Shown here in pieces: positions 1 to 14,059 of a stretch of DNA of 14,059 nucleotides. The translations under genes and the position numbers were made by a program. Location: contig JAEORO010000020.1 in the NCBI GenBank assembly GCA_016840855.1, positions 1 to 14,059 of the forward strand, given 5' to 3'. The notes beneath the pieces are model-generated. The model was given only the letters and a program-made list of their open reading frames with translations. It searched no databases and was not told where the DNA came from. Numbering within the stretch: position 1 is the first letter of the stretch; each line of letters begins with the position of its first letter. This DNA is from Candidatus Thorarchaeota archaeon (lineage in GTDB: Archaea; Asgardarchaeota; Thorarchaeia; Thorarchaeales; Thorarchaeaceae).

Positions 1-158
1 ATTGCCCCAATACTGTCCACATCTACAGGATAGTAGCTCAGCTTACTAACGTTGGCTATGGTCAGACCTGTTTTGTCAACTAGGATGACCTTTTTTATGC
101 CCTTATCCTGCCTAATGATTTCGGTGAGGATCTTATCGAAGGCTTTTGGATCACTCAT
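1..158 (-). CDS. Roadblock/LC7 (MglB-like) domain protein, 3' end runs off the window
   Basis: Not in the ORF track. Hand translation from ATG at 158 gives MSDPKAFDKILTEIIRQDKGIKKVILVDKTGLTIANVSKLSYYPVDVDSIGA, the Roadblock N-terminal pattern (helix, then GI..VILVD..GL.IA). SD GAGGTG on minus at 167-172; open to the window edge. Confidence 0.85.
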   Translation of the reverse strand, partial: MSDPKAFDKILTEIIRQDKGIKKVILVDKTGLTIANVSKLSYYPVDVDSIGA

Positions 159-184
159 TAATAGTACACCTCTATTTTATTTTC

Positions 185-487
185 TTACTCAGTGTTCTTA
201 AGGACTACTAGGATAAGTCCTTCGTTCACTTCCGGCGCGATGTTAATCTGACCCTTGGTTGTATCCAAGGTCAGGAATGACAGCGACCCCTCTCGAAGCT
301 CACGCACTGCATCAAGTGCCTTTCCAACGAGAGAGGTAATTATTGCAGCGACGTTCTCTGTTGTATCAGGGTCTAGATCACTACTAAGTGGTAGACCTTC
401 CAAGGTGGTTACAACAACTCCTCGAACTCCTTCTTGTGACTTAATTTTAGAAAGAATCCCTTGGAGTTTTTCTTGACTAATCACCAT
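185..487 (-). CDS. Roadblock/LC7 domain protein, short DYNLRB-like type (100 aa)
   Basis: GVRGVVVTTLEGLPLSS, AAIITSL and LILVVL fit the Roadblock fold. Start revised from 508 to ATG at 487 (MVISQEKL), which has a GAGG just upstream. Confidence 0.9.
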   Translation of the reverse strand: MVISQEKLQGILSKIKSQEGVRGVVVTTLEGLPLSSDLDPDTTENVAAIITSLVGKALDAVRELREGSLSFLTLDTTKGQINIAPEVNEGLILVVLKNTE

Positions 488-618
488 GCAGAGGCCTCGC
501 TGATTCAACTGTGCCTTAACATCTACGCCACAGTTGACTATTTTAGACTTGTGGAGATATGTTACAACTCCTCAGACTCCATTTGCGCATTTGGAGAATA
601 TTTGGGGTTGTGTTACAT

Positions 619-668
619 AAAAAAGAGGATTGGTCATGCCAAAAAATTCGCACGACCATTGAATGCGA
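619..668 (-). terminator. Putative terminator downstream of the vWA gene
   Basis: On minus, just after the stop at 678, TCGCA-N11-TGCGA hairpin (648-668) is followed by a T6 tract (641-646) and a second T6 tract (619-624). Confidence 0.5.
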
Positions 669-677
669 TGTTTAGAG

Positions 678-2300
678 CTATGCTTCTTTCTCATCATCAA
701 ATAGTTTCTTTGAGCTTCGTTTCATTTGAGCAAGACTACCAGTGAATGCTTCGTCCGCAGCACCTGATGGGGCTGCTTCGGGAGCTTCAGCAAGCATCTC
801 CTCTTGACGAACGATTTCAGCCTCCTCATTGTTCAGAACATTATCAGTCTTATCGAGCATCGCCTGAACACTTGCGGGGGCTGCTTTTGCCTTTGTCTTT
901 AGGGCTTTTCTGAAAGACGCTATTCGCTCGCGACCTTTTTCTCTATCGCCACGGAAAGACTCTTCTCCAGCTTTTTGTGTCACAAATGTTGCTCCAACTG
1001 TGGGGTCAAGGGTTTCCATGATTTCTTCTTCTTTCTTGGCTACACGAAGCTTTGTTGTAACCGCACGAACCCTTCTCGCACCTTCTTCATCAGTATAGGA
1101 AACCTGGACCTGTATGGGTACTTCAGGTGTCTTAATCTCCTTCTCAGGCTCGACCTCAAAATAGAGTTCATGGTCTTCTCCAACGACTCCAATCTTGCTT
1201 TCGCCTCTCTTCTTCAGCTGGTCAACAACAGCTCGAGAAACTCCAGAGACATCTTTTACCTTTACACCAGGAGGCGTGATGAGACGGACCTCTACATCTC
1301 GGCCAAGTAGGGATGCACCAGCCAATTCAGAAAGGCTTCGGTCAAGCTCATTTGGCGTGACATAATACATCTGTCCACCGGTGGCTTCTGGTAGGAGACC
1401 TAATGTTTGAAGCTCCATACCTGCCCCTGAAGCAATTCCAACTACATCCACAGCAGTACCTAGCTCCATGAACATCTTTCCAAGGTCCTCGTAGTACTTA
1501 CTCGCTGGCGTCACTTGATAGCCTTCAAGAGCGCCAATTCCTTCGTTTGCCAACCCATCAGTAAGAAGTACCACTCGACCTACATTACGGTGTTTGGCAA
1601 TGACATATGCCATTCCAACTGCAGGACCAAGAGCTGTACCCCCCTGATCACGGAGTGCCTGAACATGCTTCTTGAGCCTGTCTCTATTCTTTCCCACACC
1701 AACCAATTTCACCTGATCAAGCAGTTTCTTTGTCGAATCCATGATGTCTCTAAGACTAGCAAAAGAGTTTCTTGGAAGTTCAACTGGGTTTCCATTCTCC
1801 AGATTTCGAGCAATCACAGAGCTCTCAAACTCGATTAAGCCAAACATGGTGTCGGGTGCATTTGCAGAAAGACTGTCAATTGATGTGTTCAAGCTACGTT
1901 TGACCGCCGCCAGGTTCGCTCCAGCCATTGATCCTGAAACATCAATGAGACCAAGAAATGAACGACCACCTATGGCTATTGCTTCGGTATCGGTGCTTGT
2001 GTCTGGCGGTGGATTCACCACAAAATCTGTGTCATCCCCAGCCACAATGACCTCACCCTCTATCACATTTAGAGTTCCGCAAAAGGAGCATACAAAGTGT
2101 TTACCCACCTTTGGATCCTCTTGGATTTGGTCCACACTAAGGAGAAAGCCATTACACTTATGGCATGCTATTGGCTTTCCTACAATCTTTGTCGTCTCAT
2201 GCGCTAGATGACCAAATTCTACACGCAGGACATACGGAATATCGCTCAGTACCTTTTTCGAAGCCGGAAAAGCCTCTGAGCTGGTTCTCAACATAGGCAT
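678..2300 (-). CDS. Sec23/Sec24-like protein: Zn finger + vWA (trunk) + beta-sandwich + helical tail (540 aa)
   Basis: Zn finger PIACHKC-x21-CSFCGTLN. vWA motifs LIDVSGSM (DxSxS), GGTALGPA, VVLLTDGLANEG, VDVVG and EATGGQMY. Beta-rich region begins DVEVRLITPPGVKV. Start revised to ATG 2300 because of GGAGG at 2310-2314; the 40-aa extension in the ORF track looks non-coding. Confidence 0.8.
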   Translation of the reverse strand: MPMLRTSSEAFPASKKVLSDIPYVLRVEFGHLAHETTKIVGKPIACHKCNGFLLSVDQIQEDPKVGKHFVCSFCGTLNVIEGEVIVAGDDTDFVVNPPPDTSTDTEAIAIGGRSFLGLIDVSGSMAGANLAAVKRSLNTSIDSLSANAPDTMFGLIEFESSVIARNLENGNPVELPRNSFASLRDIMDSTKKLLDQVKLVGVGKNRDRLKKHVQALRDQGGTALGPAVGMAYVIAKHRNVGRVVLLTDGLANEGIGALEGYQVTPASKYYEDLGKMFMELGTAVDVVGIASGAGMELQTLGLLPEATGGQMYYVTPNELDRSLSELAGASLLGRDVEVRLITPPGVKVKDVSGVSRAVVDQLKKRGESKIGVVGEDHELYFEVEPEKEIKTPEVPIQVQVSYTDEEGARRVRAVTTKLRVAKKEEEIMETLDPTVGATFVTQKAGEESFRGDREKGRERIASFRKALKTKAKAAPASVQAMLDKTDNVLNNEEAEIVRQEEMLAEAPEAAPSGAADEAFTGSLAQMKRSSKKLFDDEKEA

Positions 2301-2486
2301 CGATATTTGCCTCCAAAATAATTCGACTGACCTTTGCATGAGGCGTTTTAAGTGATTCGCCGAAGTATGCCACGCGCAATTGGAAATAAATATGTGAAAT
2401 AGATGACCACAGACGAACACGCAAGATATTTACAGGCCTAGTAACAAGACTGCGGGTGATAATTCAGGCCCCATGGGAGGAATTCT

Positions 2487-2852
2487 ATGGTAGATAAAGA
2501 GAAGATTGAAAAAGTCGTGTCGGAAACGATGGCTGCGAATGCGGATTTGGAAGGCATTGTTATATGCGATGCCAAGGGACAGGTGCTATTCGGACATACC
2601 ATCAGCGGGGGAACGAAGCATTCTGACATCGCCAACCTCGCTGTGAAGATTGCATCTAACTCTTCCCAGCTTTCAGCTGGTCTTGACAAGGGAGGTCTGA
2701 AGGAAGTAAGTATTGCATCAGATAATGGGTTCATCATTATCCTTGGCGACGTAAAACTCGTACTAACGGGAGTAGCAGGAGAAGGAGCAAGAGAGTCGTT
2801 AGGTCTTCTAAGAATGGCTTTGAGAAGATCACTTCTACAAATTGTTGCTTAG
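2487..2852 (+). CDS. Roadblock/LC7 (MglB/LAMTOR2-like) domain protein with C-terminal helix (121 aa)
   Basis: LEGIVICDAKGQVL, GGLKEVSIASDNGFIII and the C-terminal helix SLGLLRMALRR. SD GGGAGG at 2475-2480. Divergent from the vWA gene. Confidence 0.85.
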   Translation: MVDKEKIEKVVSETMAANADLEGIVICDAKGQVLFGHTISGGTKHSDIANLAVKIASNSSQLSAGLDKGGLKEVSIASDNGFIIILGDVKLVLTGVAGEGARESLGLLRMALRRSLLQIVA

Positions 2853-3050
2853 TATGCGACCGAAATAGTCAGTAGAGTTAGACTTTTCTGTACTTTAGAG
2901 GATGGCCTCTAAGCCTGAATACATAATCCAGATGTAGCTGGGGTATTACTAGGGTCATACCAACGGTATTTAGGACTCTGTAACATCGGAATAACACACT
3001 TGGTCACGCCAGGGTTATTCTGACTGTAACTTGCCGGAAGGGAACGGGAC

Positions 3051-6000
3051 TTGGTTCACATTGAGAAGCTTGTATGCAAGGGCTTCAAATCATTCGGACG
3101 AGAAACAGTCACTATTAGGCTCAATCCTGGATTCACCTGTATAGTCGGACCAAATGGATCCGGCAAGTCTAACGTCATCGATGCCATCCTCTTTGTTTTA
3201 GGTCAGCTAAGCGCAAAGACGCTCAGAGCTAATGTCTTCTCGGACCTTCTCTATTCTCCACCAAAACCAAACATGCCTCCAAAAGCCAAGTCTGCTGTTG
3301 TAGAACTTCACTTTGATAACAAGGATAGGAAACTGCAGATTGATGCAGACCGCGTGGTTATAGAGAGAGAATTGGATGATTCAGGAAAATCGGTATGTCG
3401 TGTCAATGGAAGGGTAGTTACTCGTACTGCTGTGCTAGATGTGTTAGGCGCCATTGGTGTCGACCCTAATGGCTACAACCTTGTTCTCCAAGGTGAGATT
3501 GCTCAGATGGTTAAGGTGAGCCCTACTGAGCGACGGAAATTGATAGAGGACATCGCGGGAATTTCAGCATATGATGAACAGAAAGACCGTGCACTGAAGA
3601 AGTTGGCTGAAAGTGAGAGCAACTTGGGTAAAGTTGACATGCAGCTGCAAGAGCGACGTCGACATCTCGAGAAACTAGAGGAAGATATGGCTGATGCGCG
3701 CAGATACCAGAACCTCCACAAGCAGATTCGAGCACATAGAATTGACATTCTTGCTTGGAGTACCATAAAGGGCAAACTAAGGGTAGACACCATTAATGAA
3801 ACACTAGCGCAACGAGCTGAAGAAGCAGAAAGTCTTGTCAAGGAATTTGTAGAGGTTGAAACCGGAATTAAAAGCACAGAAACAGAGATTGAGAAAATAG
3901 ACCATGATATTGACCAAATCACCGGTGGTGACTCTACCAGAGTATCTGAACAGTATGGTATAGTATCTGCTGCGGTTTCTCATGTAAGAGGAGATCTAGA
4001 ACGGGCTCAAGCAGAATTCGACAAGGTATCCAGTGAGAAGATGGCTCTCAGTGAGGAACTTGAAACGGTGCAAGATGAAATTAGTCACAATGAACAAGTT
4101 TTGACCGACAAGAACAAGGAACTCTCTGTTCTTGAAAAAGAGATAGCGAGCACAGCAGCAGAAATCATCCGACTAGAAGAGATGTCAGAGAAAGCACAAA
4201 CAGAATACTACGAAACTACGCTACGTCTCCAAGATCTAAACAATCAGATGAGACACCTAGATGAGGGTGTTTCTGAAGTTCGGTCAACAATTAAGTCCGA
4301 TAATAGAGAACTTGGGCTTGCATATGAGGAACTCAGCGATGCAACGGAAAGTTTGGAAAAGACGGAAGCTGAGATTGAACAACTAGAGGCAACAATCCCT
4401 GAGAAGAGAACAGAACTCGAGAAATCCGAAGAACTTGAAAGGACAAAGCAAACCGAGGTTGACAGTCTGTCTGCACGACTTTCAACTGTTGATGCTGAAG
4501 TTGCAGAAAGTGCAAAAGTCGTATCTCAGACGAGAGAAGAACTCATTAAAGTAAAAGCTCGCCAAGATGCTTTGAAAGAGGCTGAAGATGCTTTCCTGAA
4601 AAGACGCAGGGCAATTGCTACAGTCCTTGAACTCAGGGATGCTGGTGCTATTAGCGGGATTTATGGCACAGTAGCAGAACTGGGCACAATTGATCCAGAC
4701 TATGCTGTGGCATTAGAGGTGGCTGGTGGTAGTAGGTTGTCATACATTGTTGTTGATAATGAGCAGGTAGCAACCGAATGTGTCAATGTTTTGAAGAATG
4801 AAAAAGCTGGCAGAGCCTCGTTTATTCCACTTGATAAAATCAAGACAAGTACACTAGGAAAACTCCCAAAGGATGAGGGTGTCATCGATTTCGCGTTGAA
4901 TCTTGTTAAGTTTGACCCAAAGATGCGGCCAGCTTTTGAGTTCGTATTTTCTGACACAATAGTGACTGAGGACTTTGATACAGCAAAGCGGCAAGGATTC
5001 CGAGGACAGAGAGCGGTTTCGCTGGATGGTGACTTAGTAGAACGTTCAGGATTAATTACTGGTGGGTATTTCCAGCAAGCATCAGCTGGGCTCTCACTAC
5101 AAGTAGAGGACACAAGTCCCGAGATTGAAAATCGGCTTCAAGGCTTGGAAGAGATACTGAAGGAACTTCGTACAAAGCAAGAGTCTCTTCGCAAGGAACA
5201 AATCAGCCTTGAAAAGGAGGTCCAGAACCTCTCAAAGACCAATTACAAGCTCCGAATTGAACAAGAGAGATTGGAGGAACGATTTGAGGAACAAAAATCT
5301 AGGTCTGAAATACTACACGAACGGATGGATAAAGCTAGCCTCACAATAGGTGAGCTCGAAGCTCAGGTCAAGGAGCTTCAAGAGCGTGATGATGAACTCA
5401 CCGTACAACGTGAGAGAGTTAGGGCTCAACGTGATGATGCCAATGAGGCATTAGTAACCTCTGATGCTAACAAGCTAAATCAAGAAATCAAGGATTTGAA
5501 AGAAGTACAAGAGCAGTATCAGAAACAGAGAGAAAAACTCCAGAGTGAAATAACCTCAGTGAGAGTCGCTCTTGACGAAAGACTTGGACCCAAGGCTATT
5601 GAGATTGAGTCAAAGATTCAATCCCAAGATGCAATTATCCCAGGACTTGAGGAACAAGTGAAACGATTACAGATGGGACTTGCAGAGAGAGAGAGTGAGT
5701 TTGAGAAACTAAAGGAAGAAAGAGAGCGAATTGACGAGGCTGTCAAGGACAAACGGGTGCGTCAGCTTGAATTAAAAGAAGACCTTCGTAACCTCAGACT
5801 AAGACATGAAGAGATACGTGAAGCCCAGACATCAAATGAGAAGGCAGTATACAGACTCCAGACAGAACAAAACCGATTGGAAACAGATGTCGTTGGGTAT
5901 ATGGCGGAGCTGAATCAGATAGCTGATGCCCAAGAAGCCATTGAAGAGAGAGCAAATGAACGTGAACTCACTTACAAGGAACTGGAGGAACTCGAGGAGA

Positions 6001-6641
6001 AAATCAAAGAGATTGAGAGAGAACTCGAAGCAATGGGACCTGTCAACTTGAAGTCGCTCACAGATTATGATACTGAGAAAGACCGATACGAAGAGATTGT
6101 TGATAAAAAGAATAGGCTAGAAGATGAGCGAAGAGAGATTCTCACCTTCATGGAGGAGCTTGAGGCTGAGAAAACACAGAAGTTCCTTACTGTCTACAAC
6201 GAAATTGCAGATAATTTCTCAAAAGTGTTCGGACAGTTGTCTCCGGATGGTGAGGCTAACCTCATGCTTGAAAATCCCGAACATCCGTTAATGGGAGGAA
6301 TCACAGTCAGATCAAAACCACGAGGGAAAGAATTAGTCACTCTTGATGCTATGAGTGGTGGGGAGAAGACACTTACTGGACTTGCACTCATTTTTGCGAT
6401 TCAAATGTATAGTCCTGCGAGCTTCTACATATTTGATGAGATAGATGCTGCGCTTGACAATGTAAACGCTCACAATGTGGCGCTCCTCATCTCAGAGATG
6501 TCAAAGAATTCACAGTTTGTTGTAGTATCATTGAGAGATACAACTGTACGAAAAGCTGATTTGTTGGTTGGAGTATCAAACCAAGATGGAATCTCTAGGA
6601 TTGTGTCTGTCGATTTGGAGGAGGTTGCAGTATCAACATGA
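3051..6641 (+). CDS. smc: Chromosome segregation protein SMC
   Basis: GFKSF, Walker A GPNGSGKSN, Q-loop LVLQGEI, two long coiled coils around a hinge (GIYGTVAELG ... GRASFIPL ... GLITGG), signature MSGGEK, Walker B/D-loop FDEIDAALD. 1196 aa, TTG start. Confidence 0.98.
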   Translation: MVHIEKLVCKGFKSFGRETVTIRLNPGFTCIVGPNGSGKSNVIDAILFVLGQLSAKTLRANVFSDLLYSPPKPNMPPKAKSAVVELHFDNKDRKLQIDADRVVIERELDDSGKSVCRVNGRVVTRTAVLDVLGAIGVDPNGYNLVLQGEIAQMVKVSPTERRKLIEDIAGISAYDEQKDRALKKLAESESNLGKVDMQLQERRRHLEKLEEDMADARRYQNLHKQIRAHRIDILAWSTIKGKLRVDTINETLAQRAEEAESLVKEFVEVETGIKSTETEIEKIDHDIDQITGGDSTRVSEQYGIVSAAVSHVRGDLERAQAEFDKVSSEKMALSEELETVQDEISHNEQVLTDKNKELSVLEKEIASTAAEIIRLEEMSEKAQTEYYETTLRLQDLNNQMRHLDEGVSEVRSTIKSDNRELGLAYEELSDATESLEKTEAEIEQLEATIPEKRTELEKSEELERTKQTEVDSLSARLSTVDAEVAESAKVVSQTREELIKVKARQDALKEAEDAFLKRRRAIATVLELRDAGAISGIYGTVAELGTIDPDYAVALEVAGGSRLSYIVVDNEQVATECVNVLKNEKAGRASFIPLDKIKTSTLGKLPKDEGVIDFALNLVKFDPKMRPAFEFVFSDTIVTEDFDTAKRQGFRGQRAVSLDGDLVERSGLITGGYFQQASAGLSLQVEDTSPEIENRLQGLEEILKELRTKQESLRKEQISLEKEVQNLSKTNYKLRIEQERLEERFEEQKSRSEILHERMDKASLTIGELEAQVKELQERDDELTVQRERVRAQRDDANEALVTSDANKLNQEIKDLKEVQEQYQKQREKLQSEITSVRVALDERLGPKAIEIESKIQSQDAIIPGLEEQVKRLQMGLAERESEFEKLKEERERIDEAVKDKRVRQLELKEDLRNLRLRHEEIREAQTSNEKAVYRLQTEQNRLETDVVGYMAELNQIADAQEAIEERANERELTYKELEELEEKIKEIERELEAMGPVNLKSLTDYDTEKDRYEEIVDKKNRLEDERREILTFMEELEAEKTQKFLTVYNEIADNFSKVFGQLSPDGEANLMLENPEHPLMGGITVRSKPRGKELVTLDAMSGGEKTLTGLALIFAIQMYSPASFYIFDEIDAALDNVNAHNVALLISEMSKNSQFVVVSLRDTTVRKADLLVGVSNQDGISRIVSVDLEEVAVST

Positions 6642-7360
6642 TGGACGATGATTCTCCTTTCTGGGCAACACCACCCTACATCCTTCTCACTGATGTACTC
6701 CAATTAGATAAGGTAGAGCCATGGAATGTGGATGTTGGCAAACTTGTTGTTGGTTTCTTGGATGAGATGAAACGACTGGGTGACATCGACTTTCGTATCT
6801 CTGGAAATGCGTTATACTCAGCATCTGTAATCTTCATGAGAAAGACTAGAGAACTTGTTGAACTTGGTTTTCTACCACCCGACGACGAGGAGGAGGAGGA
6901 GGATTTTGTCATTCCTCTCATTCGCCCTCCATTCAGACTAACAAATCGACGTGTAACACTTGAAGAACTACTTGTTGCTATGGATCAGGTTCTTAGCAAA
7001 GGTGTCAGAGAACGTTCTACGCTAACGAAGCGAAGATACAGCTCGAAAGCGGATCCACTGACATTTGAGATGAATAAAGACCAAGCTAATGTCGAGGAAA
7101 CAATAGCTGAAGTCTATGAGGATTTATGTCGGATAATGAGAGTTGGTGAAGTATCGAAGTTTACTGATGTACTTATGAATAACACTAGACAAGAGATAGT
7201 GAGAGTCTTTTTTTCACTCCTGTTCCTTTATGCACGAGCGTACATTGACATCTGGATGGACGAAGAGAGTATCATCTGGGTAAAACTTCAGGAGCCTCCC
7301 AAAGTATCTGAAAAGGACAAATCTCACGAGGAAGATATTCAGCCAGAGATTGAAACCTAG
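6638..7360 (+). CDS. scpA: Kleisin, segregation and condensation protein A
   Basis: N-terminal VEPWNVDV ... DFRISGNALYSASV, RRVTLEELL, and C-terminal winged helix IVRVFFSLLFL. ATGA overlap with the smc stop; SD GGAGGAGG at 6617-6624. Confidence 0.93.
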   Translation: MMDDDSPFWATPPYILLTDVLQLDKVEPWNVDVGKLVVGFLDEMKRLGDIDFRISGNALYSASVIFMRKTRELVELGFLPPDDEEEEEDFVIPLIRPPFRLTNRRVTLEELLVAMDQVLSKGVRERSTLTKRRYSSKADPLTFEMNKDQANVEETIAEVYEDLCRIMRVGEVSKFTDVLMNNTRQEIVRVFFSLLFLYARAYIDIWMDEESIIWVKLQEPPKVSEKDKSHEEDIQPEIET

Positions 7361-7370
7361 GGTGTTACCA

Positions 7371-7925
7371 ATGGATGAGGACATGATTACGGTTGAAGCT
7401 GCGCTCTATGTTTCAGGTCGAGCTCTGACTCTAGAGGAATTAGCTGACATGATTGGAAAATCTCAATCGACTACCCAGAAAGTGCTTGACAATCTGAGCT
7501 TCGAATATAGCAAGAGAGAAGGCGCTTTGGAAGTGGTTGCTCTACCAAAGGATCGTTATGTGATGCAATTAAAACCAGAACTCACTCCGCGAGTTGGTAA
7601 ATTGATACCAGGAGGACTCTTGTCGTTCGCTACTCTTCAAACATTAGTCTTCATTGCTCTCAAACAGCCCATTCTTCAGTCAGAGCTTGTTGCATTACGA
7701 GGCACCCATTCCTACGATCATATCAAAGATTTAGTTGACAAGAAGTTCATTGAGGCAGCACCAGAAGGGCGCTCTAAGTTGCTAACAACAACCCAACTTT
7801 TTGCTGACTATTTTGGCCTTGATAGTGATAAAGTCAAACTTAAGGCACAGCTCAAATTCAAGATGAAGAAGATACTTGAGGACCAGGGTGAAATGAGCGA
7901 GTCTGCGGGAATCACAAACATCTAG
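7371..7925 (+). CDS. scpB: KITE subunit, segregation and condensation protein B
   Basis: VEAALYVSG, LSFATLQTLVFIALKQPI, LRG ... HIKDL and TTQLFADYFGL. Start revised to ATG 7371, with GGGTG at 7360-7364. Confidence 0.95.
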   Translation: MDEDMITVEAALYVSGRALTLEELADMIGKSQSTTQKVLDNLSFEYSKREGALEVVALPKDRYVMQLKPELTPRVGKLIPGGLLSFATLQTLVFIALKQPILQSELVALRGTHSYDHIKDLVDKKFIEAAPEGRSKLLTTTQLFADYFGLDSDKVKLKAQLKFKMKKILEDQGEMSESAGITNI

Positions 7926-7949
7926 AAACCAATCGCTTACGAAGCAGTT

Positions 7950-8963
7950 CTAACATACGCGAGGTATAGGTTCACCATATGGTACTTGGATTATCTTACG
8001 ACCTCCGATTGTGGTCCTCATGACAACTCTAGCCTTACCATCGAGGACTTTACCAACTACTCGAGGGTCTTGTGTAGTCTTATATTTTGTAAGAGCATCG
8101 AGAATGTCATCAGTATCTCTGGATTCAACACTCATTACTACAGTGCCTTCGCAGCTCATGTGAAGTGGGTCAAGTCCGAGTACGTTGCATAGGGACTGAA
8201 CCGATGGACGGACTGGAATTTTCTCTTCTTGGAGCTCGAACTCAACTTTGGATTTTGACGCGAGTTCATTTAAAGCGACGGCTGTACCACCTCTGGTCGG
8301 GTCCTTCATGGCATGCACATCACCTGCATCAAGACAGGCGCGAATTGGTTCCCAAAGAGGAGCAACATCACTGACTAAATCAGTATCAAAATTCAGTCCT
8401 TCTCGGTGTGCGAGTAACGAAGTTCCGTGATCACCCACTGGTCCTGAGATGATTATGTCATCACCAGGTTTAGCGCCACTGTCTGAAATTGGATGGTCCA
8501 AGTAGGGAATTCCAATCCCTGTTGTTGACATTACGATTCCATCAAGAGTTCCTGGAGGCATTACTTTTGTGTCGCCAGCTATCATTGCAATGTCAAGAGG
8601 CTCAATGATACTATTGAGAGAGCGTAGCATAGTCTGAAGCAAGGCAATCTCAACGCCTTCCTCTACGATTACAGTATTTGTCATTGCTACAGGTTTAGCT
8701 CCCATGACAGCTAAGTCATTGATGGTACCGCAGGCTGTTAGGATTCCTAGATTACCACCAGGAAACACAATTGGGTGTATTGTATGGGCATCAGTGCACA
8801 CAATTAGATTGACACCTGTAACTTGCAGCGTAGCACCATCGTCCATCTCATCAAGACCAATTTCTCCTATTTTTCTTCTTCCAAAAGAGGGGATTATTAC
8901 TTCTTCTAGAAGACGCTGCATCAACTTGCCACCAGCTCCATGTGCAGTTTCAATCTTTGACAT
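7950..8963 (-). CDS. hypE: [NiFe]-hydrogenase maturation carbamoyl dehydratase HypE
   Basis: HGAGG, DDGA, GTINDLAVMGAKP, GDTKV, MKDPTRGG and C-terminal PRVC (PR[IV]C). Start revised to ATG 8963, with GGAGG at 8971-8975. Confidence 0.96.
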   Translation of the reverse strand: MSKIETAHGAGGKLMQRLLEEVIIPSFGRRKIGEIGLDEMDDGATLQVTGVNLIVCTDAHTIHPIVFPGGNLGILTACGTINDLAVMGAKPVAMTNTVIVEEGVEIALLQTMLRSLNSIIEPLDIAMIAGDTKVMPPGTLDGIVMSTTGIGIPYLDHPISDSGAKPGDDIIISGPVGDHGTSLLAHREGLNFDTDLVSDVAPLWEPIRACLDAGDVHAMKDPTRGGTAVALNELASKSKVEFELQEEKIPVRPSVQSLCNVLGLDPLHMSCEGTVVMSVESRDTDDILDALTKYKTTQDPRVVGKVLDGKARVVMRTTIGGRKIIQVPYGEPIPRVC

Positions 8964-9059
8964 CAACCATCCTCCGACTATGCAGTGTCTAGAAACAGAC
9001 CTTAGAAGTATTTGAAGAGGTCGCTTCGAACATGAAAAGAAGTTGGACACTAAGCAACA

Positions 9060-9066
9060 TTTAAAA
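9060..9066 (+). promoter_or_regulatory. Putative TATA box for rps8e
   Basis: TTTAAAA about 47 nt upstream of the ATG, in the divergent hypE/rps8e spacer. SD GAGGTG at 9100-9105. Confidence 0.45.
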
Positions 9067-9112
9067 CGAATCTACAAGGAGGCTGAATGACCTAACCAAG
9101 AGGTGTTCAGAT

Positions 9113-9490
9113 ATGGGTGTTTGGCATAGAAGATCAACACGTACTTCCACTGGTGCTCGATTAAAGCGGTTCAAAAGTAAGAGAAAGCACGAGATGGGTA
9201 GAACTCCAACTGAAACCCTAATGGGCGAAGCAAAGCGCACCTCAATTGATAGTAGACGTAAAGTAAAGAAGACACCAGCACTTCGTCTTGGCCAAGTTAA
9301 TGTCACAGATCCATCAAAAAATGTGACATTCCGTGCTGAATTACAGGATGTTGAGAAAAATCCAGCTAACATGGACTATCAGCGAAGAAAAGTCATTACA
9401 CGTGGCACAATCATCAAGACCTCAAAAGGTCGTGCGAGAGTAACAAGCAGACCGGGTCAAGAAGGGATTCTGAACGCTGTGTTAATCTAA
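9113..9490 (+). CDS. rps8e: 30S ribosomal protein S8e
   Basis: MGVWHRRSTR..TG, KRKHEMGR, VEKNPAN, VITRGTII and ARVTSRPGQEGILNAVLI. 125 aa. Confidence 0.97.
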   Translation: MGVWHRRSTRTSTGARLKRFKSKRKHEMGRTPTETLMGEAKRTSIDSRRKVKKTPALRLGQVNVTDPSKNVTFRAELQDVEKNPANMDYQRRKVITRGTIIKTSKGRARVTSRPGQEGILNAVLI

Positions 9491-9518
9491 GAAACGGATT
9501 TTTCGTAAGTAGTTCTTT

Positions 9519-9914
9519 TTAATCAACAAAGGATTCTGCGACTTCAGCTTCAATGCTCGTTATCACAAAGTCTCTCCCACCAGTGATTTTTGTGGAACTA
9601 CTTCCACATTTTCCACACTTCATGGGTGCGAACACGGCTATTTGATTAGGAATATCTGGATCTAGATTTGACTCGCCTTCGAATCCGCAGTCATTACAGA
9701 GTAGTCGACCTGTGACTTTCTTAATCCGCAATTCTGCACCTTCTAAAATCGAGTTTCGGCTGGCAATTTCAAAATTAAATATTAGTTGTTCAGGAATAAG
9801 AAAAGTGAATTCTCCAACTTCTACATTAACAGCAGAAACTCTTGATGCTCCGTTACTAATTGCTGCTTCAAGTGCAGTATCGACAATAGAACATGCTGCA
9901 GAGAACTCATGCAA
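9519..9914 (-). CDS. hypA: Hydrogenase nickel incorporation protein HypA
   Basis: N-terminal MHE Ni-binding motif, VEVGEFT..PEQL.F.F, CNDC ... CGKC Zn site, and GRDF.I.SIE. TTG start with GGTG upstream. Confidence 0.96.
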   Translation of the reverse strand: MHEFSAACSIVDTALEAAISNGASRVSAVNVEVGEFTFLIPEQLIFNFEIASRNSILEGAELRIKKVTGRLLCNDCGFEGESNLDPDIPNQIAVFAPMKCGKCGSSSTKITGGRDFVITSIEAEVAESFVD

Positions 9915-9984
9915 TTAATAACACCAAGACCAGCATGTTGGAAGTTCTGTTAAGGCACTTCCGATATAGTCAAAGGTCAGACTC

Positions 9985-10012
9985 TTTATATGATTCATCG
10001 TTTACTGATGAA
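9985..10012 (+). promoter_or_regulatory. Putative TATA box with an adjacent inverted repeat
   Basis: TTTATAT at 9985-9991 followed by TTCATC-N7-GATGAA (9994-10012). SD GGAGGT at 10034-10039. Confidence 0.4.
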
Positions 10013-10043
10013 ATGTCCTGTTATGATGTGAGAGGAGGTCGCC

Positions 10044-10649
10044 TTGTCCAAGATATCTAAAACATCAAAAAAGACAGTCGCGTCTAAGAGGGAAACCAAG
10101 AGTAGTAAAAAAGCTCCAAATAAATCTACAGCTAAGAAGTCCTCTAAACCCGAAGCAAAGCCTACCAAAAGAAAGACCACAAAAGAGAAGAAAACTTCTG
10201 GGAAGGGAGCTGGCGTAAAGACACTACCAACCAAGAAGACTAGTAAGAAAAAATCAGTGGTAAAGGGCTCTGTTGAAAAAGAGAAAGAGATGCTTAATGA
10301 ACTAGAAACTGAGATACATAGTAATGATGAACAAGTCTGTCTGGGAGCTGTTGATCGGTTGGGAAGTTTGAAACATCCAGATGCGACACGAGTCTTAATG
10401 GTCGCACTTGAAGACAAACGATACATGGTTAGGATACACGCTGCTGCTCAACTAGGTGAGAGAAAGGACAAGAAATCGATTGATGCATTGGTTGAGTCTC
10501 TTAATGATGATTCGGTTTTTGTAAGGCAGACGGTGGCGGGAGCTCTTGAGAACATCGGTGGTGCTAAAGCAAAGAAGGCACTCTCTAAAGCAGAGAGAGA
10601 AGGTTTGCTTCTGGATGAGTTGCCGGAAGGAAAAAGACTTGGAGAATAG
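10044..10649 (+). CDS. HEAT-repeat (PBS-lyase/HEAT_2-type) protein with a Lys-rich low-complexity N-terminus
   Basis: Repeats D..VCLGAVDRLG, LEDKRYMVRIHAAAQLG and LNDDSVFVRQTVAGALENIG. First 75 aa are K/S/T-rich. TTG start after GGAGGT. Confidence 0.85.
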   Translation: MSKISKTSKKTVASKRETKSSKKAPNKSTAKKSSKPEAKPTKRKTTKEKKTSGKGAGVKTLPTKKTSKKKSVVKGSVEKEKEMLNELETEIHSNDEQVCLGAVDRLGSLKHPDATRVLMVALEDKRYMVRIHAAAQLGERKDKKSIDALVESLNDDSVFVRQTVAGALENIGGAKAKKALSKAEREGLLLDELPEGKRLGE

Positions 10650-10760
10650 ATACAAAACTCATCTCTGTCATGTGAGAAGAGGGTGGTATATTCGACGGCA
10701 TTCTGCTTATATTGAAAGGTGTTAGGATTTTGTTAGTAGACAATACGGAGAATAACCATC

Positions 10761-11309
10761 TTGAATGATTTCTCTAACGATGAGATTACGAAGATTGAGT
10801 CGCAAATCAAGGATCTCGATTTAGACTATATGCGTGGACTTGTTTCAGATGATGAGTATAGTCAAAAAATGGCGAAGTTGAGGCTGCAACTGGAACAAGC
10901 AGGGGGGTCAGCGAAAAGTGTGTCACCAGTTCAGAAAATCGAACCTAAAGAGATACAGGCTGCCAAATTGCAACCACCACCAGCCGAAAAGAGAGCTGCA
11001 GTAGATCCCGTTACAGCCGTAAAGAGAGCAGTGGAAGGTATGAGAAGACTTGCCTTGGAGAAGATAGCACAAGAGGCAGGCGTGTCAATTATGAATGTAA
11101 CCAAGATCTTAAGCGACCTCTTAGATGGAAGAGAACTTTCCGGAAGGATAGACCACGATCGAGGAGATTTCATTCTTGGGACTGGAACTGGACCACCCCC
11201 AAAAACTATTGCAGTCTGTCCATACTGTAAGAACGATTTGAAACGAATTGCAGTAAAGGGGGAAACTGTGACGTGCACCATGTGCAGGGAGTCATTCATT
11301 GTATCATGA
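10761..11309 (+). CDS. Hypothetical protein: SHOCT-like N-terminus + PCI-like winged helix + C4 Zn ribbon
   Basis: LDYMRGLVSDDEYSQKMAKL (SHOCT-like), LALEKIAQEAGVS..NVTKILSDLLDGRELSGRID (PCI/WH-like) and CPYC...CTMC. TTG start; GGAG at 10747-10750. Confidence 0.65.
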   Translation: MNDFSNDEITKIESQIKDLDLDYMRGLVSDDEYSQKMAKLRLQLEQAGGSAKSVSPVQKIEPKEIQAAKLQPPPAEKRAAVDPVTAVKRAVEGMRRLALEKIAQEAGVSIMNVTKILSDLLDGRELSGRIDHDRGDFILGTGTGPPPKTIAVCPYCKNDLKRIAVKGETVTCTMCRESFIVS

Positions 11310-11330
11310 TGTAACTCAGGGTGATTGTAA

Positions 11331-12602
11331 TTGGACTTCTTTCAGGCATGTCTGAAGGCAGATAATCGAGAAGCTGTGAATGCCATCAGGAAGATGATAC
11401 CATCTGCACGTCCATCAGCTATCTGGGCAGTACTTATGCATGGCGCAGCATGGCATGAACAACGAACCTATGATACGCCACATTCAACAATCGTTGTGAA
11501 TTCGGTACACAAGATGATTGAGGACTTTGGTAGTCACACGGGACTTGCACCTGATGTTCCATCTAAGTCTATCAGGATTAATCTTGAAGAAGAGAAGAAA
11601 GTCGATGTTCAGGAATTATTGATTGAACGACTTGCACTACATTTAGCAGATATTGATCACTGGAATCTGGAAAAAGGACCCAGTTATAATGTCGAGAAGA
11701 GTATTGACTCTCCTGATAACGCCATCAGAAAGTTTGAGAGTACAATACGGCAAAAGAGCTTAGTTGGTTCTTGGGAAGCATCAGTCATTCTGGCATCTAA
11801 GGATGAACCTACTAGATTAAGACGTGTCATTGCATCACTTGCTGCAGAAGAACCTGATAAGCTAGGACATGCCTTCATTATGCCCACCTCTCTTATTGAA
11901 GAATTGCCCAGAGCAGAATATACCAGGCCGCAGATTGCATCTCTTTGGCATCTTATGGAATTCCTCGTGAGAAAAATACCATCGCAATCTCCTGAGGGCT
12001 TTTCGCAAGATGATAATTTGTCAAAGTTAGTGAAACCAGTAAGTCTAGGGGAGTATCGAAATATCTTCGTGAATGCTCTTGCGAATTATGGAATTCTAGG
12101 ACATAATACTATCTTTGCTCAGAGAATTGCAGCTGCCAATCAGAATGGGCTTGTGACAAAAGAGATGATTCGCTGGCTTGTTGGGAAGTTGAAACAAAAC
12201 ATTGGTGGGACAATGGCTTCCGATGATGACTTGGCTTATGAAAGAGTTCTGAAGAAAAATGTGGGGACTGACTGGATCCAACAACCTGATGCTAACAGGC
12301 TCCCGCATACAAAACCGATTCAAGATTGGGTCACTAACAATGACTTTGCTAAGATGTGGGCAGCTATGACTCATAAAAGGTCTTGCGAGTTTGAGAATAA
12401 GCTCCCTGAATTTGATTCTGAGTGGCAACTTGTGCGATGTTGTCAGTATATTATGGCAGCACTTCTAAGTGAGCCTCGAGCATCTCATGTAATGATCTTC
12501 ACTCATGCTGCGTGGAGTCTTGTGGACCATCTTCTCGTTCCAAGTGACTTAGCGGCTCTACAGATTCATAGGATGCTCCGGAAACACCTGAGTGAGTGGT
12601 AA
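11331..12602 (+). CDS. Hypothetical alpha-helical protein with four H-x-x-I motifs (423 aa)
   Basis: Long ORF filling the gap between neighbours, SD GGGTGA at 11319-11324, 21 nt downstream of the previous gene. Function not recognised. Confidence 0.8.
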   Translation: MDFFQACLKADNREAVNAIRKMIPSARPSAIWAVLMHGAAWHEQRTYDTPHSTIVVNSVHKMIEDFGSHTGLAPDVPSKSIRINLEEEKKVDVQELLIERLALHLADIDHWNLEKGPSYNVEKSIDSPDNAIRKFESTIRQKSLVGSWEASVILASKDEPTRLRRVIASLAAEEPDKLGHAFIMPTSLIEELPRAEYTRPQIASLWHLMEFLVRKIPSQSPEGFSQDDNLSKLVKPVSLGEYRNIFVNALANYGILGHNTIFAQRIAAANQNGLVTKEMIRWLVGKLKQNIGGTMASDDDLAYERVLKKNVGTDWIQQPDANRLPHTKPIQDWVTNNDFAKMWAAMTHKRSCEFENKLPEFDSEWQLVRCCQYIMAALLSEPRASHVMIFTHAAWSLVDHLLVPSDLAALQIHRMLRKHLSEW

Positions 12603-12611
12603 GCAGAGGAA

Positions 12612-14059
12612 TTATTTTTCTTCGCCTTTTCGATAAGACTCAGCAAGAAGGTCTGGGATATAGCGAACCTGCATGTTTGTTTCCTTCATCATATCATTAA
12701 TCTGGATTGTACAGAAGGGACATTCAGTAGTCACCATGTCAGCACCAGTTGCTTCAATGTACTCCTTCTTTGTTTGGGCAATTTTCTGGGAAAGCTCACG
12801 TTGACCTGCACGGACACCGCCGCCTGCACCACAACAGCGATTCTTGTAGGGATCATCAATGTATTCCACACCAGGTATCATTTTGAGAAGCTCGATTGGC
12901 TCGTCATATACATGCTGACCCCTGCCCAAGTGACAGGGTTCGTGATAGGTGATTTTCAATTTGATTTCACCCTTTGGTGGAACAATGTTCTCCTTACCAA
13001 TCACATGAATCATGTACTCTGCTAAGTCATAGACCTTGTACATTGGTGGTTCTCCACGATCTGACTCAATAAAAGGTCGATGATCCTCTCGGAGTGTTTT
13101 TCCGCATCCTGCACAAGCAACCACTACTGTGTCACAATTGTATTTCTTGCAGGCTTCTTCGAATATCTCAGTAACTCTGCGTGCGGCTGCATGAGCTGTG
13201 TTGAGATCTCCAGTCCTGAAGGCAGGACTTGCGCAGCACCATTGTTCCTTCGGAACGACTACATCAATATTGTTACGATTCAGAACATCAATCAGTGCTT
13301 TGCCAGTGTTCTGCATCCGGTAGTCTATAAGACAGCCTGTGAAGAAAGCAACACGACCGCGCGGATTATCCACGAAGAACTCTGCGTCTTTAACTTGTTT
13401 GAGAAGAGGTGCATCCTTAACAGGCACAGCCCTACCAGTTGCATTAATAGAGTCGATAAAGGCTTGCTGACCTTCAGCAAGTGGATAGCCAGCTTCGACA
13501 GCTTTGGCCCTAAGCAGTTCTACAGCTAAAGCAGGGATGTCTATCTTTTTGGGACAGATGTCGGTACACATCTTACAAGTAGTGCAGCTGTAGACTGATT
13601 CATTCATCGCCATTGCTACACGATCCTCTACATCGCGAGGGTCAAGCTCAAGCCTAGCTATCTGACGAATAATCATTGGACCAGGATAATCCCAGGTTTC
13701 ATGAACAATTGGGCAGTTGGATAAGCATGCACTGCATTCGATGCATTTTCGAATCTCACGAAGCTTTTCAATTTCCTCAGCATGGATAATCTCAGGATGC
13801 TGTGGCTGTTTATCACGCGCAACATAAGGACGGATTCGTCGGATACGAAAAGATGTCTGAGCCATGTCAGTGACTAAGTCCTTAATGACAGGCATCTTTT
13901 CGAGTGGTTCGAGGACTAGGTTTTCTTCAGGGTTTACCTTAGTTCGACATGCGATACGAGCTGTCTTGTTGACTTTCACGGCGCAAGAACCGCATTGACC
14001 CCCTCTACATTCCCATCGAAACGCCAAGCTTGAATCATACTTGTCTTGAATATAGAGTA
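12612..14059 (-). CDS. tfrB: Thiol:fumarate reductase subunit B-like protein (SdhB/FrdB Fe-S domains fused to two CCG domains), 5'-truncated
   Basis: Frame stays open to the window edge (..LYIQDKYDSSLAFRWEC). [2Fe-2S] motif CRGGQCGSC...C; two [4Fe-4S] motifs CIECSACLSNCP and CTTCKMCTDICP; HdrD-like CCG domains (GC...CCA...CAGC and HEPCH...CCGAGG...CPFC). Confidence 0.85.
   Translation of the reverse strand, partial: LYIQDKYDSSLAFRWECRGGQCGSCAVKVNKTARIACRTKVNPEENLVLEPLEKMPVIKDLVTDMAQTSFRIRRIRPYVARDKQPQHPEIIHAEEIEKLREIRKCIECSACLSNCPIVHETWDYPGPMIIRQIARLELDPRDVEDRVAMAMNESVYSCTTCKMCTDICPKKIDIPALAVELLRAKAVEAGYPLAEGQQAFIDSINATGRAVPVKDAPLLKQVKDAEFFVDNPRGRVAFFTGCLIDYRMQNTGKALIDVLNRNNIDVVVPKEQWCCASPAFRTGDLNTAHAAARRVTEIFEEACKKYNCDTVVVACAGCGKTLREDHRPFIESDRGEPPMYKVYDLAEYMIHVIGKENIVPPKGEIKLKITYHEPCHLGRGQHVYDEPIELLKMIPGVEYIDDPYKNRCCGAGGGVRAGQRELSQKIAQTKKEYIEATGADMVTTECPFCTIQINDMMKETNMQVRYIPDLLAESYRKGEEK

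Follow-up and report, generated by a model that had tools for sequence, protein, structure and literature searches.

A Sec23/24-like gene of Thorarchaeota lies beside Roadblock genes and, in its relatives, an MglA-family GTPase gene

What is a gene resembling those of the COPII inner coat doing among Roadblock genes in an archaeon? The question is raised by a contig of a Candidatus Thorarchaeota archaeon (assembly GCA_016840855.1, contig JAEORO010000020.1), of which positions 1 to 14,059 were analysed (14,059 nucleotides, hereafter the window). At its left end are a Sec23/24-like gene, encoding a protein with a zinc finger and a domain of the von Willebrand factor A type (vWA), here called the vWA protein, and three Roadblock genes, here called RB1, RB2 and RB3. 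Roadblock dimers regulate small GTPases, as in MglB-MglA and Ragulator-Rag, and Sec23 is the GTPase-activating protein (GAP) of Sar1 in the COPII inner coat. A preliminary description, made from the sequence alone, had read these genes as one module in which Roadblock heterodimers and the vWA protein act on a small GTPase encoded just beyond the left edge. Asgard Sec23-like proteins have been presented as forerunners of the COPII coat, and to our knowledge they are still without a known partner. The reading we reach, tentatively and at a little under an even chance, is that the locus encodes an MglA-type switch with a platform of several Roadblock proteins, and that the vWA protein is a candidate to serve this switch as effector or adaptor; a COPII-like role of the vWA protein, as GAP or as coat, is unlikely. 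The genes concerned are the following:

RB1, 3..158, reverse strand: first 52 codons of a Roadblock protein of 154 residues; the gene runs off the left edge of the window
RB2, 185..487, reverse strand: 100 residues; Robl_LC7 at 1.4e-16 (Pfam)
Sec23/24-like zinc-finger/vWA gene, 678..2300, reverse strand: 540 residues; Sec23_trunk, Sec23_BS and VWA (Pfam)
Spacer separating the divergent vWA and RB3 genes, 2301..2486, no strand: 186 bp; a frequent site of insertion or rearrangement in relatives
RB3, 2487..2852, forward strand: 121 residues; Robl_LC7 at 22.6 bits, LAMTOR5 at 4.2e-5; 198 bp upstream of SMC-ScpA-ScpB

As had been described, RB2 and RB1 lie downstream of the vWA gene and are co-directional with it, and RB3 diverges from it across a spacer of exactly 186 bp. 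The three Roadblock proteins are indeed mutually dissimilar: compared pairwise by BLASTP, none of them aligns with another at E ≤ 100.

The arrangement was followed in species-representative genomes, in a synteny scan of 77 loci (labelled L001 and onwards): 34 of the Thorarchaeota clade, with vWA protein identities of 57–96%, 29 of more distant archaea and 14 of bacteria. Within the clade, RB2 comes next after the vWA gene in all 31 loci whose contig continues, and RB1 follows RB2 in 30 of 30, the order vWA-RB2-RB1 thus being kept. RB3 is found divergently upstream of the vWA gene in 29 of the 30 loci with upstream sequence. The exception is L021 (1–6000), where other genes stand upstream in place of RB3 and SMC, and vWA-RB2-RB1 is kept. 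The arrangement of the vWA gene and the Roadblock genes is not due to chance.

The small GTPase predicted past the left edge could be located in the relatives. An MglA-family GTPase gene and a fourth Roadblock gene (RB4) lie beyond RB1 in 29 of 30 related loci, and in the sole locus without the GTPase the sequence ends 40 bp past RB1. The GTPase gene is on the same strand, 141 bp to 3.9 kb beyond RB1; in the closest relative, L001 (vWA identity 96%), it begins 686 bp past RB1. The order after RB1 in L002 is a small zinc-ribbon gene on the other strand, a gene for a GTPase of 190 residues, RB4 (126 residues) and a cis-prenyltransferase gene. This GTPase matches the Pfam families Arf (3.8e-14) and Ras (1e-7); among solved structures it matches MglA at 3e-38 over residues 11–185, versus 6e-12 for Arf. 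Its R54, T75-x-x-G-Q79, NKRD motif and P-loop align with R53, T78, Q82 and NKRD of Myxococcus xanthus MglA, whose R53 is said to have been given a catalytic role by Miertzschke and co-workers in 2011. On the evidence of its sequence, the GTPase beyond the left edge belongs to the MglA family. It is strongly conserved between loci (phmmer E about 1e-115 to 1e-126), and RB1 keeps 88–99% identity across 27 genomes, against 57–92% for the vWA protein of these genomes; conservation so far above that of the vWA protein fits a hub role for RB1 and the GTPase.

RB4 matches Robl_LC7 at 2.9e-16 and, among solved structures, 7f8m best (1e-23). It comes after the GTPase gene in 26 of the 27 loci with enough sequence; the exception, L016 (9347–13620), is rearranged, and other genes occupy the expected place of RB4 and the prenyltransferase gene. 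The cis-prenyltransferase, of the undecaprenyl-diphosphate-synthase (UPPS) family (Pfam, 1.2e-76), follows RB4 and may belong to the GTPase-RB4 unit. The distances between the genes in the Thorarchaeota clade are as follows:

SMC to RB3: 178–204 bp in 24 of 26 loci; exceptions of 1381 and 1713 bp
RB3 to vWA gene: 136–209 bp in 22 of 27; 317–1528 bp in 5
vWA gene to RB2: 148–231 bp in 29 of 30 (about 190 bp); 503 bp in L007
RB2 to RB1: −4 to 26 bp in 29 of 29; no exception
RB1 to GTPase gene: 141–321 bp in 16 of 28; 495–3925 bp in 12
GTPase gene to RB4: 3–27 bp in 23 of 25; 776 and 784 bp in L018 and L019
RB4 to prenyltransferase gene: 60–80 bp in 24 of 24 (L001–L044); no exception

Rearrangements or insertions are thus found between RB3 and the vWA gene (5 of 27 loci, and L021), between RB1 and the GTPase gene (12 of 28) and between the GTPase gene and RB4 (L016, L018 and L019). 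None of them breaks vWA-RB2-RB1, within which the sole insert is one of about 310 bp in the vWA/RB2 spacer of L007 (about 7690–8010, Thorarchaeota AB_25). It lies between copies of a 12-base direct repeat, TGTAACACAACC, the trace expected of a small mobile element.

Turning to the Roadblock proteins themselves, the 52 residues of RB1 encoded in the window are identical to the start of a 154-residue orthologue (L002:8136–8597). The fragment alone had no Pfam match; the full-length orthologue matches Robl_LC7 (1.4e-9) and MAPKK1_Int/LAMTOR3 (1.5e-7) in Pfam, MglB (2.9e-4) and LAMTOR2 (4e-3) among solved structures and, weakly, MglB in NCBIfam (1.3e-4, residues 8–147). RB1 carries an extra, invariant acidic C-terminal helix, encoded beyond the window edge, and its likeness to MglB includes the C-terminal helix region. 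These matches class it as an MglB-like Roadblock. Its AlphaFold2 model, made from 27 near-identical sequences, had a predicted local distance difference test (pLDDT) score of 50.3, too poor for searching, and its order of secondary structures was used loosely. The homologue search with RB1 gave 433 matches, the best 120 of the 433 all being at least 91% identical.

The best solved match of RB2 is 7f8f (1.3e-25), followed by a eukaryotic dynein light chain roadblock (4e-13), and RB2 can be assigned to the short Roadblocks of the LC7/dynein-light-chain type. In L025 (7830–8150) its frame shifts halfway and the C-terminal half is unrelated, perhaps an assembly error or decay. The Robl_LC7 score of RB3 is just below the cut-off of 23 bits (E 8.6e-5), and RB3 also matches the solved "Roadblock/LC7 domain protein" 9jq8 (3.9e-9). 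Weak Pfam matches link RB2 and RB3 to LAMTOR5, and RB1 to LAMTOR3.

In the available part of an earlier study, short Roadblocks without a C-terminal helix are proposed to offer a groove for the helix of a partner (PMC10933270). RB2 and RB1 probably heterodimerise, and helix docking of this kind may be part of their contact. A complex prediction of RB2, RB1 and the vWA protein scored 0.00 in both runs, which counts neither for nor against binding. The Roadblock dimers would form the regulator or scaffold platform of an MglA-type switch, acting as GAP, exchange or anchoring surfaces in the manner of MglA-MglB-MglC and Ragulator-Rag. That the Roadblock proteins and the MglA-family GTPase make up a module appears to us quite probable, and what is known of these families supports it well.

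Among known systems, MglA-MglB(-MglC) of Myxococcus and Thermus has a GTPase of the like family, an adjacent Roadblock gene and more than one Roadblock paralogue. The Thorarchaeota locus differs in having four distinct Roadblocks instead of two, the order GTPase then Roadblock, an archaeal host and no RomR or RomX seen. A Thorarchaeota MglA-MglB pair has been modelled by others, according to the accessible part of their report (PMC13408092). Ragulator-Rag, with its LAMTOR2/3 and LAMTOR4/5 heterodimers, likewise combines several unlike Roadblocks, long and short, and the Thorarchaeota set is encoded near a GTPase; in contrast to Rag, the 190-residue GTPase lacks a Roadblock domain at its C terminus, and a tether resembling LAMTOR1 was not seen at the locus. 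Since the LAMTOR matches are weak, the likeness to Ragulator is one of analogy, not of membership.

The Sec23/24 likeness of the vWA protein, the other half of the question, proved real. In Pfam it matches Sec23_trunk (PF04811, 40.7 bits, cut-off 27), Sec23_BS (PF08033, 37.1 bits, cut-off 33.5) and VWA, and it is 94% identical to a protein of Thorarchaeota SMTZ1-45 that NCBI names "SEC24 family transport protein". An AlphaFold2 model built from 42 sequences (pLDDT 88.3, predicted template modelling score 0.88) shows N-terminal strands, a zinc ribbon, an alpha/beta domain (residues 114–328), a beta-sandwich (331–421) and helices (424–539), in this order. The domains are placed in the window as follows:

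Zinc ribbon of the vWA gene, 2064..2177, reverse strand: C46, C49, C71 and C74
vWA/trunk domain with an intact adhesion site of the metal-ion-dependent type (MIDAS), 1317..1961, reverse strand: Pfam and AlphaFold2 model
Beta-sandwich of the vWA gene, 1038..1310, reverse strand: Pfam and AlphaFold2 model
Helical domain of the vWA gene, 684..1031, reverse strand: AlphaFold2 model

When the model was compared with the PDB by Foldseek, the top matches were chains of Sec24 and Sec23 only (E 4e-31 to 5e-26, template modelling (TM) scores 0.66–0.74), followed by the bacterial vWA protein 4fx5 (3.6e-17), the ArnAB complex 8s05 (2.9e-16) and the ArnB paralogue 5a8j (6.9e-14). By sequence, true Sec24 is a marginal match (Sec24C, E 0.002). 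The helices and the chain-wide Foldseek alignments indicate the helical domain, yet PF04815 was unmatched. The four zinc-ribbon cysteines are invariant or nearly so across the family alignments, and the zinc finger family PF04810 matches three homologues (P0157, P0160 and P0205) at 5e-6 to 2e-4, with no match to the window protein at E ≤ 0.01. Alignments of 29, 42 and 51 family members show no variation at the MIDAS residues D120, S122, S124, T222 and D248; the motif is intact, and metal binding is predicted from it.

Fold and domain order are those of COPII Sec23 and Sec24 over about 580–645 aligned columns. The vWA protein differs from them in being about 200 residues shorter, in its intact MIDAS, in its marginal sequence match, in its neighbouring GTPase, which is MglA-type and not Sar1, and in having no gelsolin domain: no such domain was matched in Pfam, and the chain ends at residue 540 in helices. 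In the parts available of a recent paper on Asgard Sec23-like proteins (Nat Commun 2025, PMC11914678), all of these proteins are reported to lack the gelsolin domain, which carries the GAP residue of Sec23. Without this domain the vWA protein cannot be a Sec23-type GAP. The proteins of that paper are of the same family, with zinc finger, trunk, beta-barrel, helical domain, no gelsolin domain and Foldseek matches to Sec23/24; its available parts mention neither a Roadblock/MglA neighbourhood nor the intact MIDAS nor the kinship described below.

Two observations on the vWA gene itself may be added. Thorarchaeota can have a second Sec23/24-like paralogue, 41–46% identical and away from the Roadblock cluster (L043 and L027), L043 sharing its genome bin with the orthologue L041, to which it is 41% identical; two such paralogues recall the Sec23/Sec24 pair. 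The open reading frame (ORF) of the vWA gene in L023 (492–2468) has 659 residues, about 120 above the usual length, again perhaps an assembly error or decay.

A homologue search with the vWA protein against 1.84 billion representatives gave 963 proteins at E ≤ 0.001, of which the best 150 were examined. The full-length homologues of about 520–560 residues come from Asgard lineages. Many others are of 700–950 residues and match at phmmer E 1e-25 to 1e-31, covering residues 129–530 or so. A Ras-like GTPase is found at the N terminus of 17 of the best 150 of the 963; these proteins, from Dictyostelium, Capsaspora, echinoderms, molluscs and others, are named "circularly permutated Ras protein 1", here cpRAS-VWA. 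Other long homologues are without the GTPase (P0163–P0166, P0170, P0191 and P0228). The family was described in 2008 (Elias and Novotny, CPRas1) as cpRAS, a putative four-cysteine finger and a VWA/Sec23 trunk, with no assigned function in the accessible portion of that paper (PMC2430557).

All 15 long forms aligned retain the four cysteines and the full MIDAS signature, D-x-S-G-S-M ... T ... D-G-x-x-N. In a quick tree of 55 rows (LG+G4, with support from the Shimodaira–Hasegawa-like approximate likelihood ratio test (SH-aLRT) only), from which true Sec23/24 had been left out, the cpRAS-VWA clade (SH-aLRT 99) is sister to the Asgard clade (99), with bacterial vWA proteins outside. Judged by sequence, no eukaryotic proteins stand closer to the vWA protein than cpRAS-VWA; these differ from it in that one chain also holds a circularly permuted Ras domain and, in some cases, a RING finger. 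The tree covers the Asgard family, cpRAS-VWA and bacterial vWA proteins, and the sister relation is one among these three. A literature search pairing cpRAS with Asgard found no paper, and neither the intact MIDAS nor the cpRAS-VWA kinship of Asgard Sec23-like proteins was found in print.

Whether the vWA gene is transcribed with its neighbours bears directly on the proposed module. Two elements lie between it and RB2:

Promoter-like stretch before RB2, 538..591, reverse strand: ATGCGCA at 584..590 and a TATA-like box, TCTAAAATAG, at 538..547
Terminator-like element after the vWA stop codon, 616..658, reverse strand: stem-loop at 631..658, then a U-rich run at 616..627

The hairpin starts about 20 nt past the vWA stop codon (−16.5 kcal/mol, z −3.2). 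In 11 of 12 loci a hairpin of differing sequence with the pairing kept is found in the same place, with a U run after most of them; the z-scores range from −4.2 to −0.3, eight of the 12 being −2 or lower. Hairpin and U run resemble a terminator. The hairpin was not listed by a consensus terminator scan, because its T run begins more than two bases past the stem. A hairpin terminator is unusual in archaea, in which a run of T is generally enough.

All 12 aligned loci have ATGCGCA, unchanged, about 100 nt upstream of RB2. The 8-base word AATGCGCA (584..591) is found once in the window, and ATGCGCA, counted on both strands in seven loci, is found once in each of six and twice in L024. Near it is the conserved TATA-like box CCACAAG-TCTAAAATAG, about 55 nt before the start of RB2, and the stretch 538..591 is a putative promoter of RB2. 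The GTPase gene has a similar box, CCACAAAGG-CTTTTAT, and ATGCGCA with its box may be the site of a shared regulator or simply local promoter grammar. As the vWA/RB2 gap is of about 190 bp and holds both a hairpin after the stop codon and a TATA-like box, the vWA gene and the Roadblock genes do not form one operon. RB2 and RB1, given their gap of −4 to 26 bp, are probably co-translated. We read the locus as separate units, namely the vWA gene alone, RB2-RB1, GTPase-RB4 with or without the prenyltransferase gene, and RB3, possibly with SMC.

Taken together, the adjacency of the vWA gene, the GTPase gene and four Roadblock genes throughout the Thorarchaeota clade suggests that these genes work together. 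The vWA protein would be the candidate effector or adaptor of the MglA switch, binding an acidic residue of a partner through the metal of its MIDAS and thereby contacting the Roadblock/GTPase set. Its coupling to the Roadblock/MglA module is plausible but unproven, and is based on the clade-wide adjacency, which has survived local rearrangements, and on the GTPase fusion of the eukaryotic sister family; we consider it possible, if rather short of an even chance. RB3 faces the other way and travels with SMC-ScpAB; it is doubtful that it is part of the module.

Several results weigh against this reading. The vWA gene looks monocistronic, by the gap, the hairpin and the promoter-like box downstream. 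The positions of SMC and of the cis-prenyltransferase gene are as conserved as those of the Roadblock genes, and at L021 RB3 stays with SMC and not with the vWA gene. Synteny across Asgard genomes, proposed beforehand as a check, held throughout the Thorarchaeota clade and ended there. Among 227 ORFs (at least 75 residues, within 2.5 kb) at 24 distant Sec23/24-like loci, from a Thorarchaeota paralogue and the Hermod, Odin, Jord, Frey, Borr, Heimdall and Loki lineages, there was no Pfam match to Robl_LC7 or to a small GTPase. Profiles built from the Thorarchaeota proteins found no Roadblock in 29 distant loci totalling 298 kb, and one weak GTPase match, about 4 kb away on the opposite strand in L046. 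The Thorarchaeota paralogues L043 and L027 have no Roadblock neighbours. Other lineages keep unrelated metabolic neighbours of their own (iron-containing alcohol dehydrogenase and PHO4/PhoU; amino-acid permease and Nre; hexapeptide transferase and enoyl-CoA hydratase), so that synteny within one class is weak evidence. In addition, the GTPases of MK-D1 generally lie outside operons with Roadblocks (PMC10933270, in the part available), and the one published binding test was negative: three Asgard Sec23-like proteins bound one Asgard Arf only weakly and whatever its nucleotide state, an MglA-type GTPase not having been tried, according to the accessible text (PMC11914678).

These results are what would be expected if the genes were neighbours by descent only, the adjacency having arisen once in the ancestor of the Thorarchaeota, with the stretch from SMC to the prenyltransferase gene collinear and the vWA gene functionally unrelated to the rest. 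The absence of linkage from the distant loci (24 by Pfam, 29 by our own profiles), the unrelated metabolic neighbours conserved in other lineages, the equally conserved positions of the flanking SMC and UPPS genes and the apparently separate transcription units all favour this explanation, which we regard as a serious possibility, likewise short of even. It accounts less well for the vWA-RB2-RB1 trio, which is intact at the L021 rearrangement and through many insertions elsewhere, and for the eukaryotic homologues of the vWA module, which are covalently fused to a Ras-like GTPase. The single module of the preliminary description is accordingly supported only in part: clade-wide adjacency, the presence of the GTPase and the eukaryotic GTPase fusion on one side, separate transcription units and no distant linkage on the other.

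A more improbable explanation is a signalling scaffold like ArnB, in which the vWA protein would be an adaptor switched by phosphorylation or metal-dependent binding, independently of a GTPase. Foldseek ranks 4fx5, 8s05 and 5a8j next after the Sec23/24 chains, and ArnB of Sulfolobus shares the layout of a vWA domain with MIDAS, beta-sandwich and helices and binds a zinc finger, as stated in the available part of its description (PMC12852372). In ArnA/ArnB, however, a separate FHA protein carries the zinc finger and a kinase exerts the control, and the structural match is much weaker (3e-16); the E-values of the Sec23/24 matches are lower by about 14 orders of magnitude, and these matches run along the whole chain, with the zinc ribbon in cis. 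Moreover, kinase, phosphatase and FHA genes are absent from the window and from the Thorarchaeota loci.

A proto-COPII coat, in which the neighbouring GTPase recruits the vWA protein to membranes as an inner-coat subunit that stimulates GTP hydrolysis, in the way of Sec23 with Sar1, and the Roadblocks are exchange factors, would draw on the chain-wide Sec23/Sec24 fold, the nearby GTPase and the 41%-identical paralogue in the same bin (L041 and L043), which would allow a Sec23/Sec24-like heterodimer, but it is very improbable, given that the gelsolin domain, source of the catalytic residue of Sec23, is absent, that the GTPase is MglA-type, not Sar/Arf-type, with an arginine of its own (R54), that the MIDAS is intact, unlike those of COPII trunks, and that no outer-coat gene is present at the locus.

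For the MglA switch with the vWA protein as adaptor, the locus supplies what Asgard Sec23-like proteins have been missing, that is, candidate partners (an MglA-family GTPase and four Roadblocks) in class-wide adjacency. It also offers two handles that were not found in print: the MIDAS, which is intact and open to mutation, and, among eukaryotes, the closely related cpRAS-VWA proteins, whose module is joined to a GTPase in one chain. Should binding be demonstrated, a GTPase-coupled use of the Sec23/24 fold would be older than eukaryotes; if not, the proto-coat reading loses its main genomic support. In a literature search for Asgard Sec23 with Roadblock, the neighbourhood was undescribed in the accessible parts of the papers; a search on the neighbourhood itself gave nothing relevant, and Liu et al. 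2021 or Zaremba-Niedzwiedzka 2017 may mention the genes. A bolder version, to us a long shot, is that Thorarchaeota have a functioning early form of coat or adaptor recruitment driven by a GTPase: that the MglA switch in its GTP form recruits a MIDAS-bearing adaptor of the Sec23/24 fold, perhaps through the acidic helix of RB1, that a Ragulator-like platform of four Roadblocks tunes it and that cpRAS-VWA proteins are the fused descendants. If this were true, the Asgard Sec23-like family would be the common stock of cpRAS-VWA and the COPII inner coat, and its first GTPase partner would have been MglA-like, not Arf-like.

The remainder of the window holds, beside RB3, the operon SMC-ScpA-ScpB (3051..7925):

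SMC, 3051..6641, forward strand: SMC_N at 2e-59 and SMC_hinge at 2.4e-34 (Pfam)
ScpA, 6638..7360, forward strand: ScpA at 6.6e-6 (Pfam)
ScpB, 7350..7925, forward strand: ScpB at 7e-35 (Pfam)

Rfam gave no match in the whole window. PADLOC gave none for the six proteins submitted to it, which argues that they are not a known defence system. Further along (9998..12602) are genes for a HEAT-repeat protein (10044..10649), a protein of 182 residues with weak PCI and CdvA-like coiled-coil matches (10761..11309) and a protein of 423 residues without a Pfam or NCBIfam match (11331..12602).

Two minor observations concern the distant Sec23/24-like loci. In loci of the Heimdall type (L046:4821–5882, L048:4721–5791, L050:4818–5879 and L055:1176–2249), a gene for 354–358 residues, with no Pfam match, lies immediately upstream of the Sec23/24-like gene and is co-directional with it; its product is a possible lineage-specific partner. 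The COPII outer-coat proteins are WD40 propellers, and in a single case, on a contig labelled Undinarchaeota (L052:5890–9046), the Sec23/24-like gene is followed by a gene that overlaps its end and encodes a WD40 beta-propeller of 485 residues.

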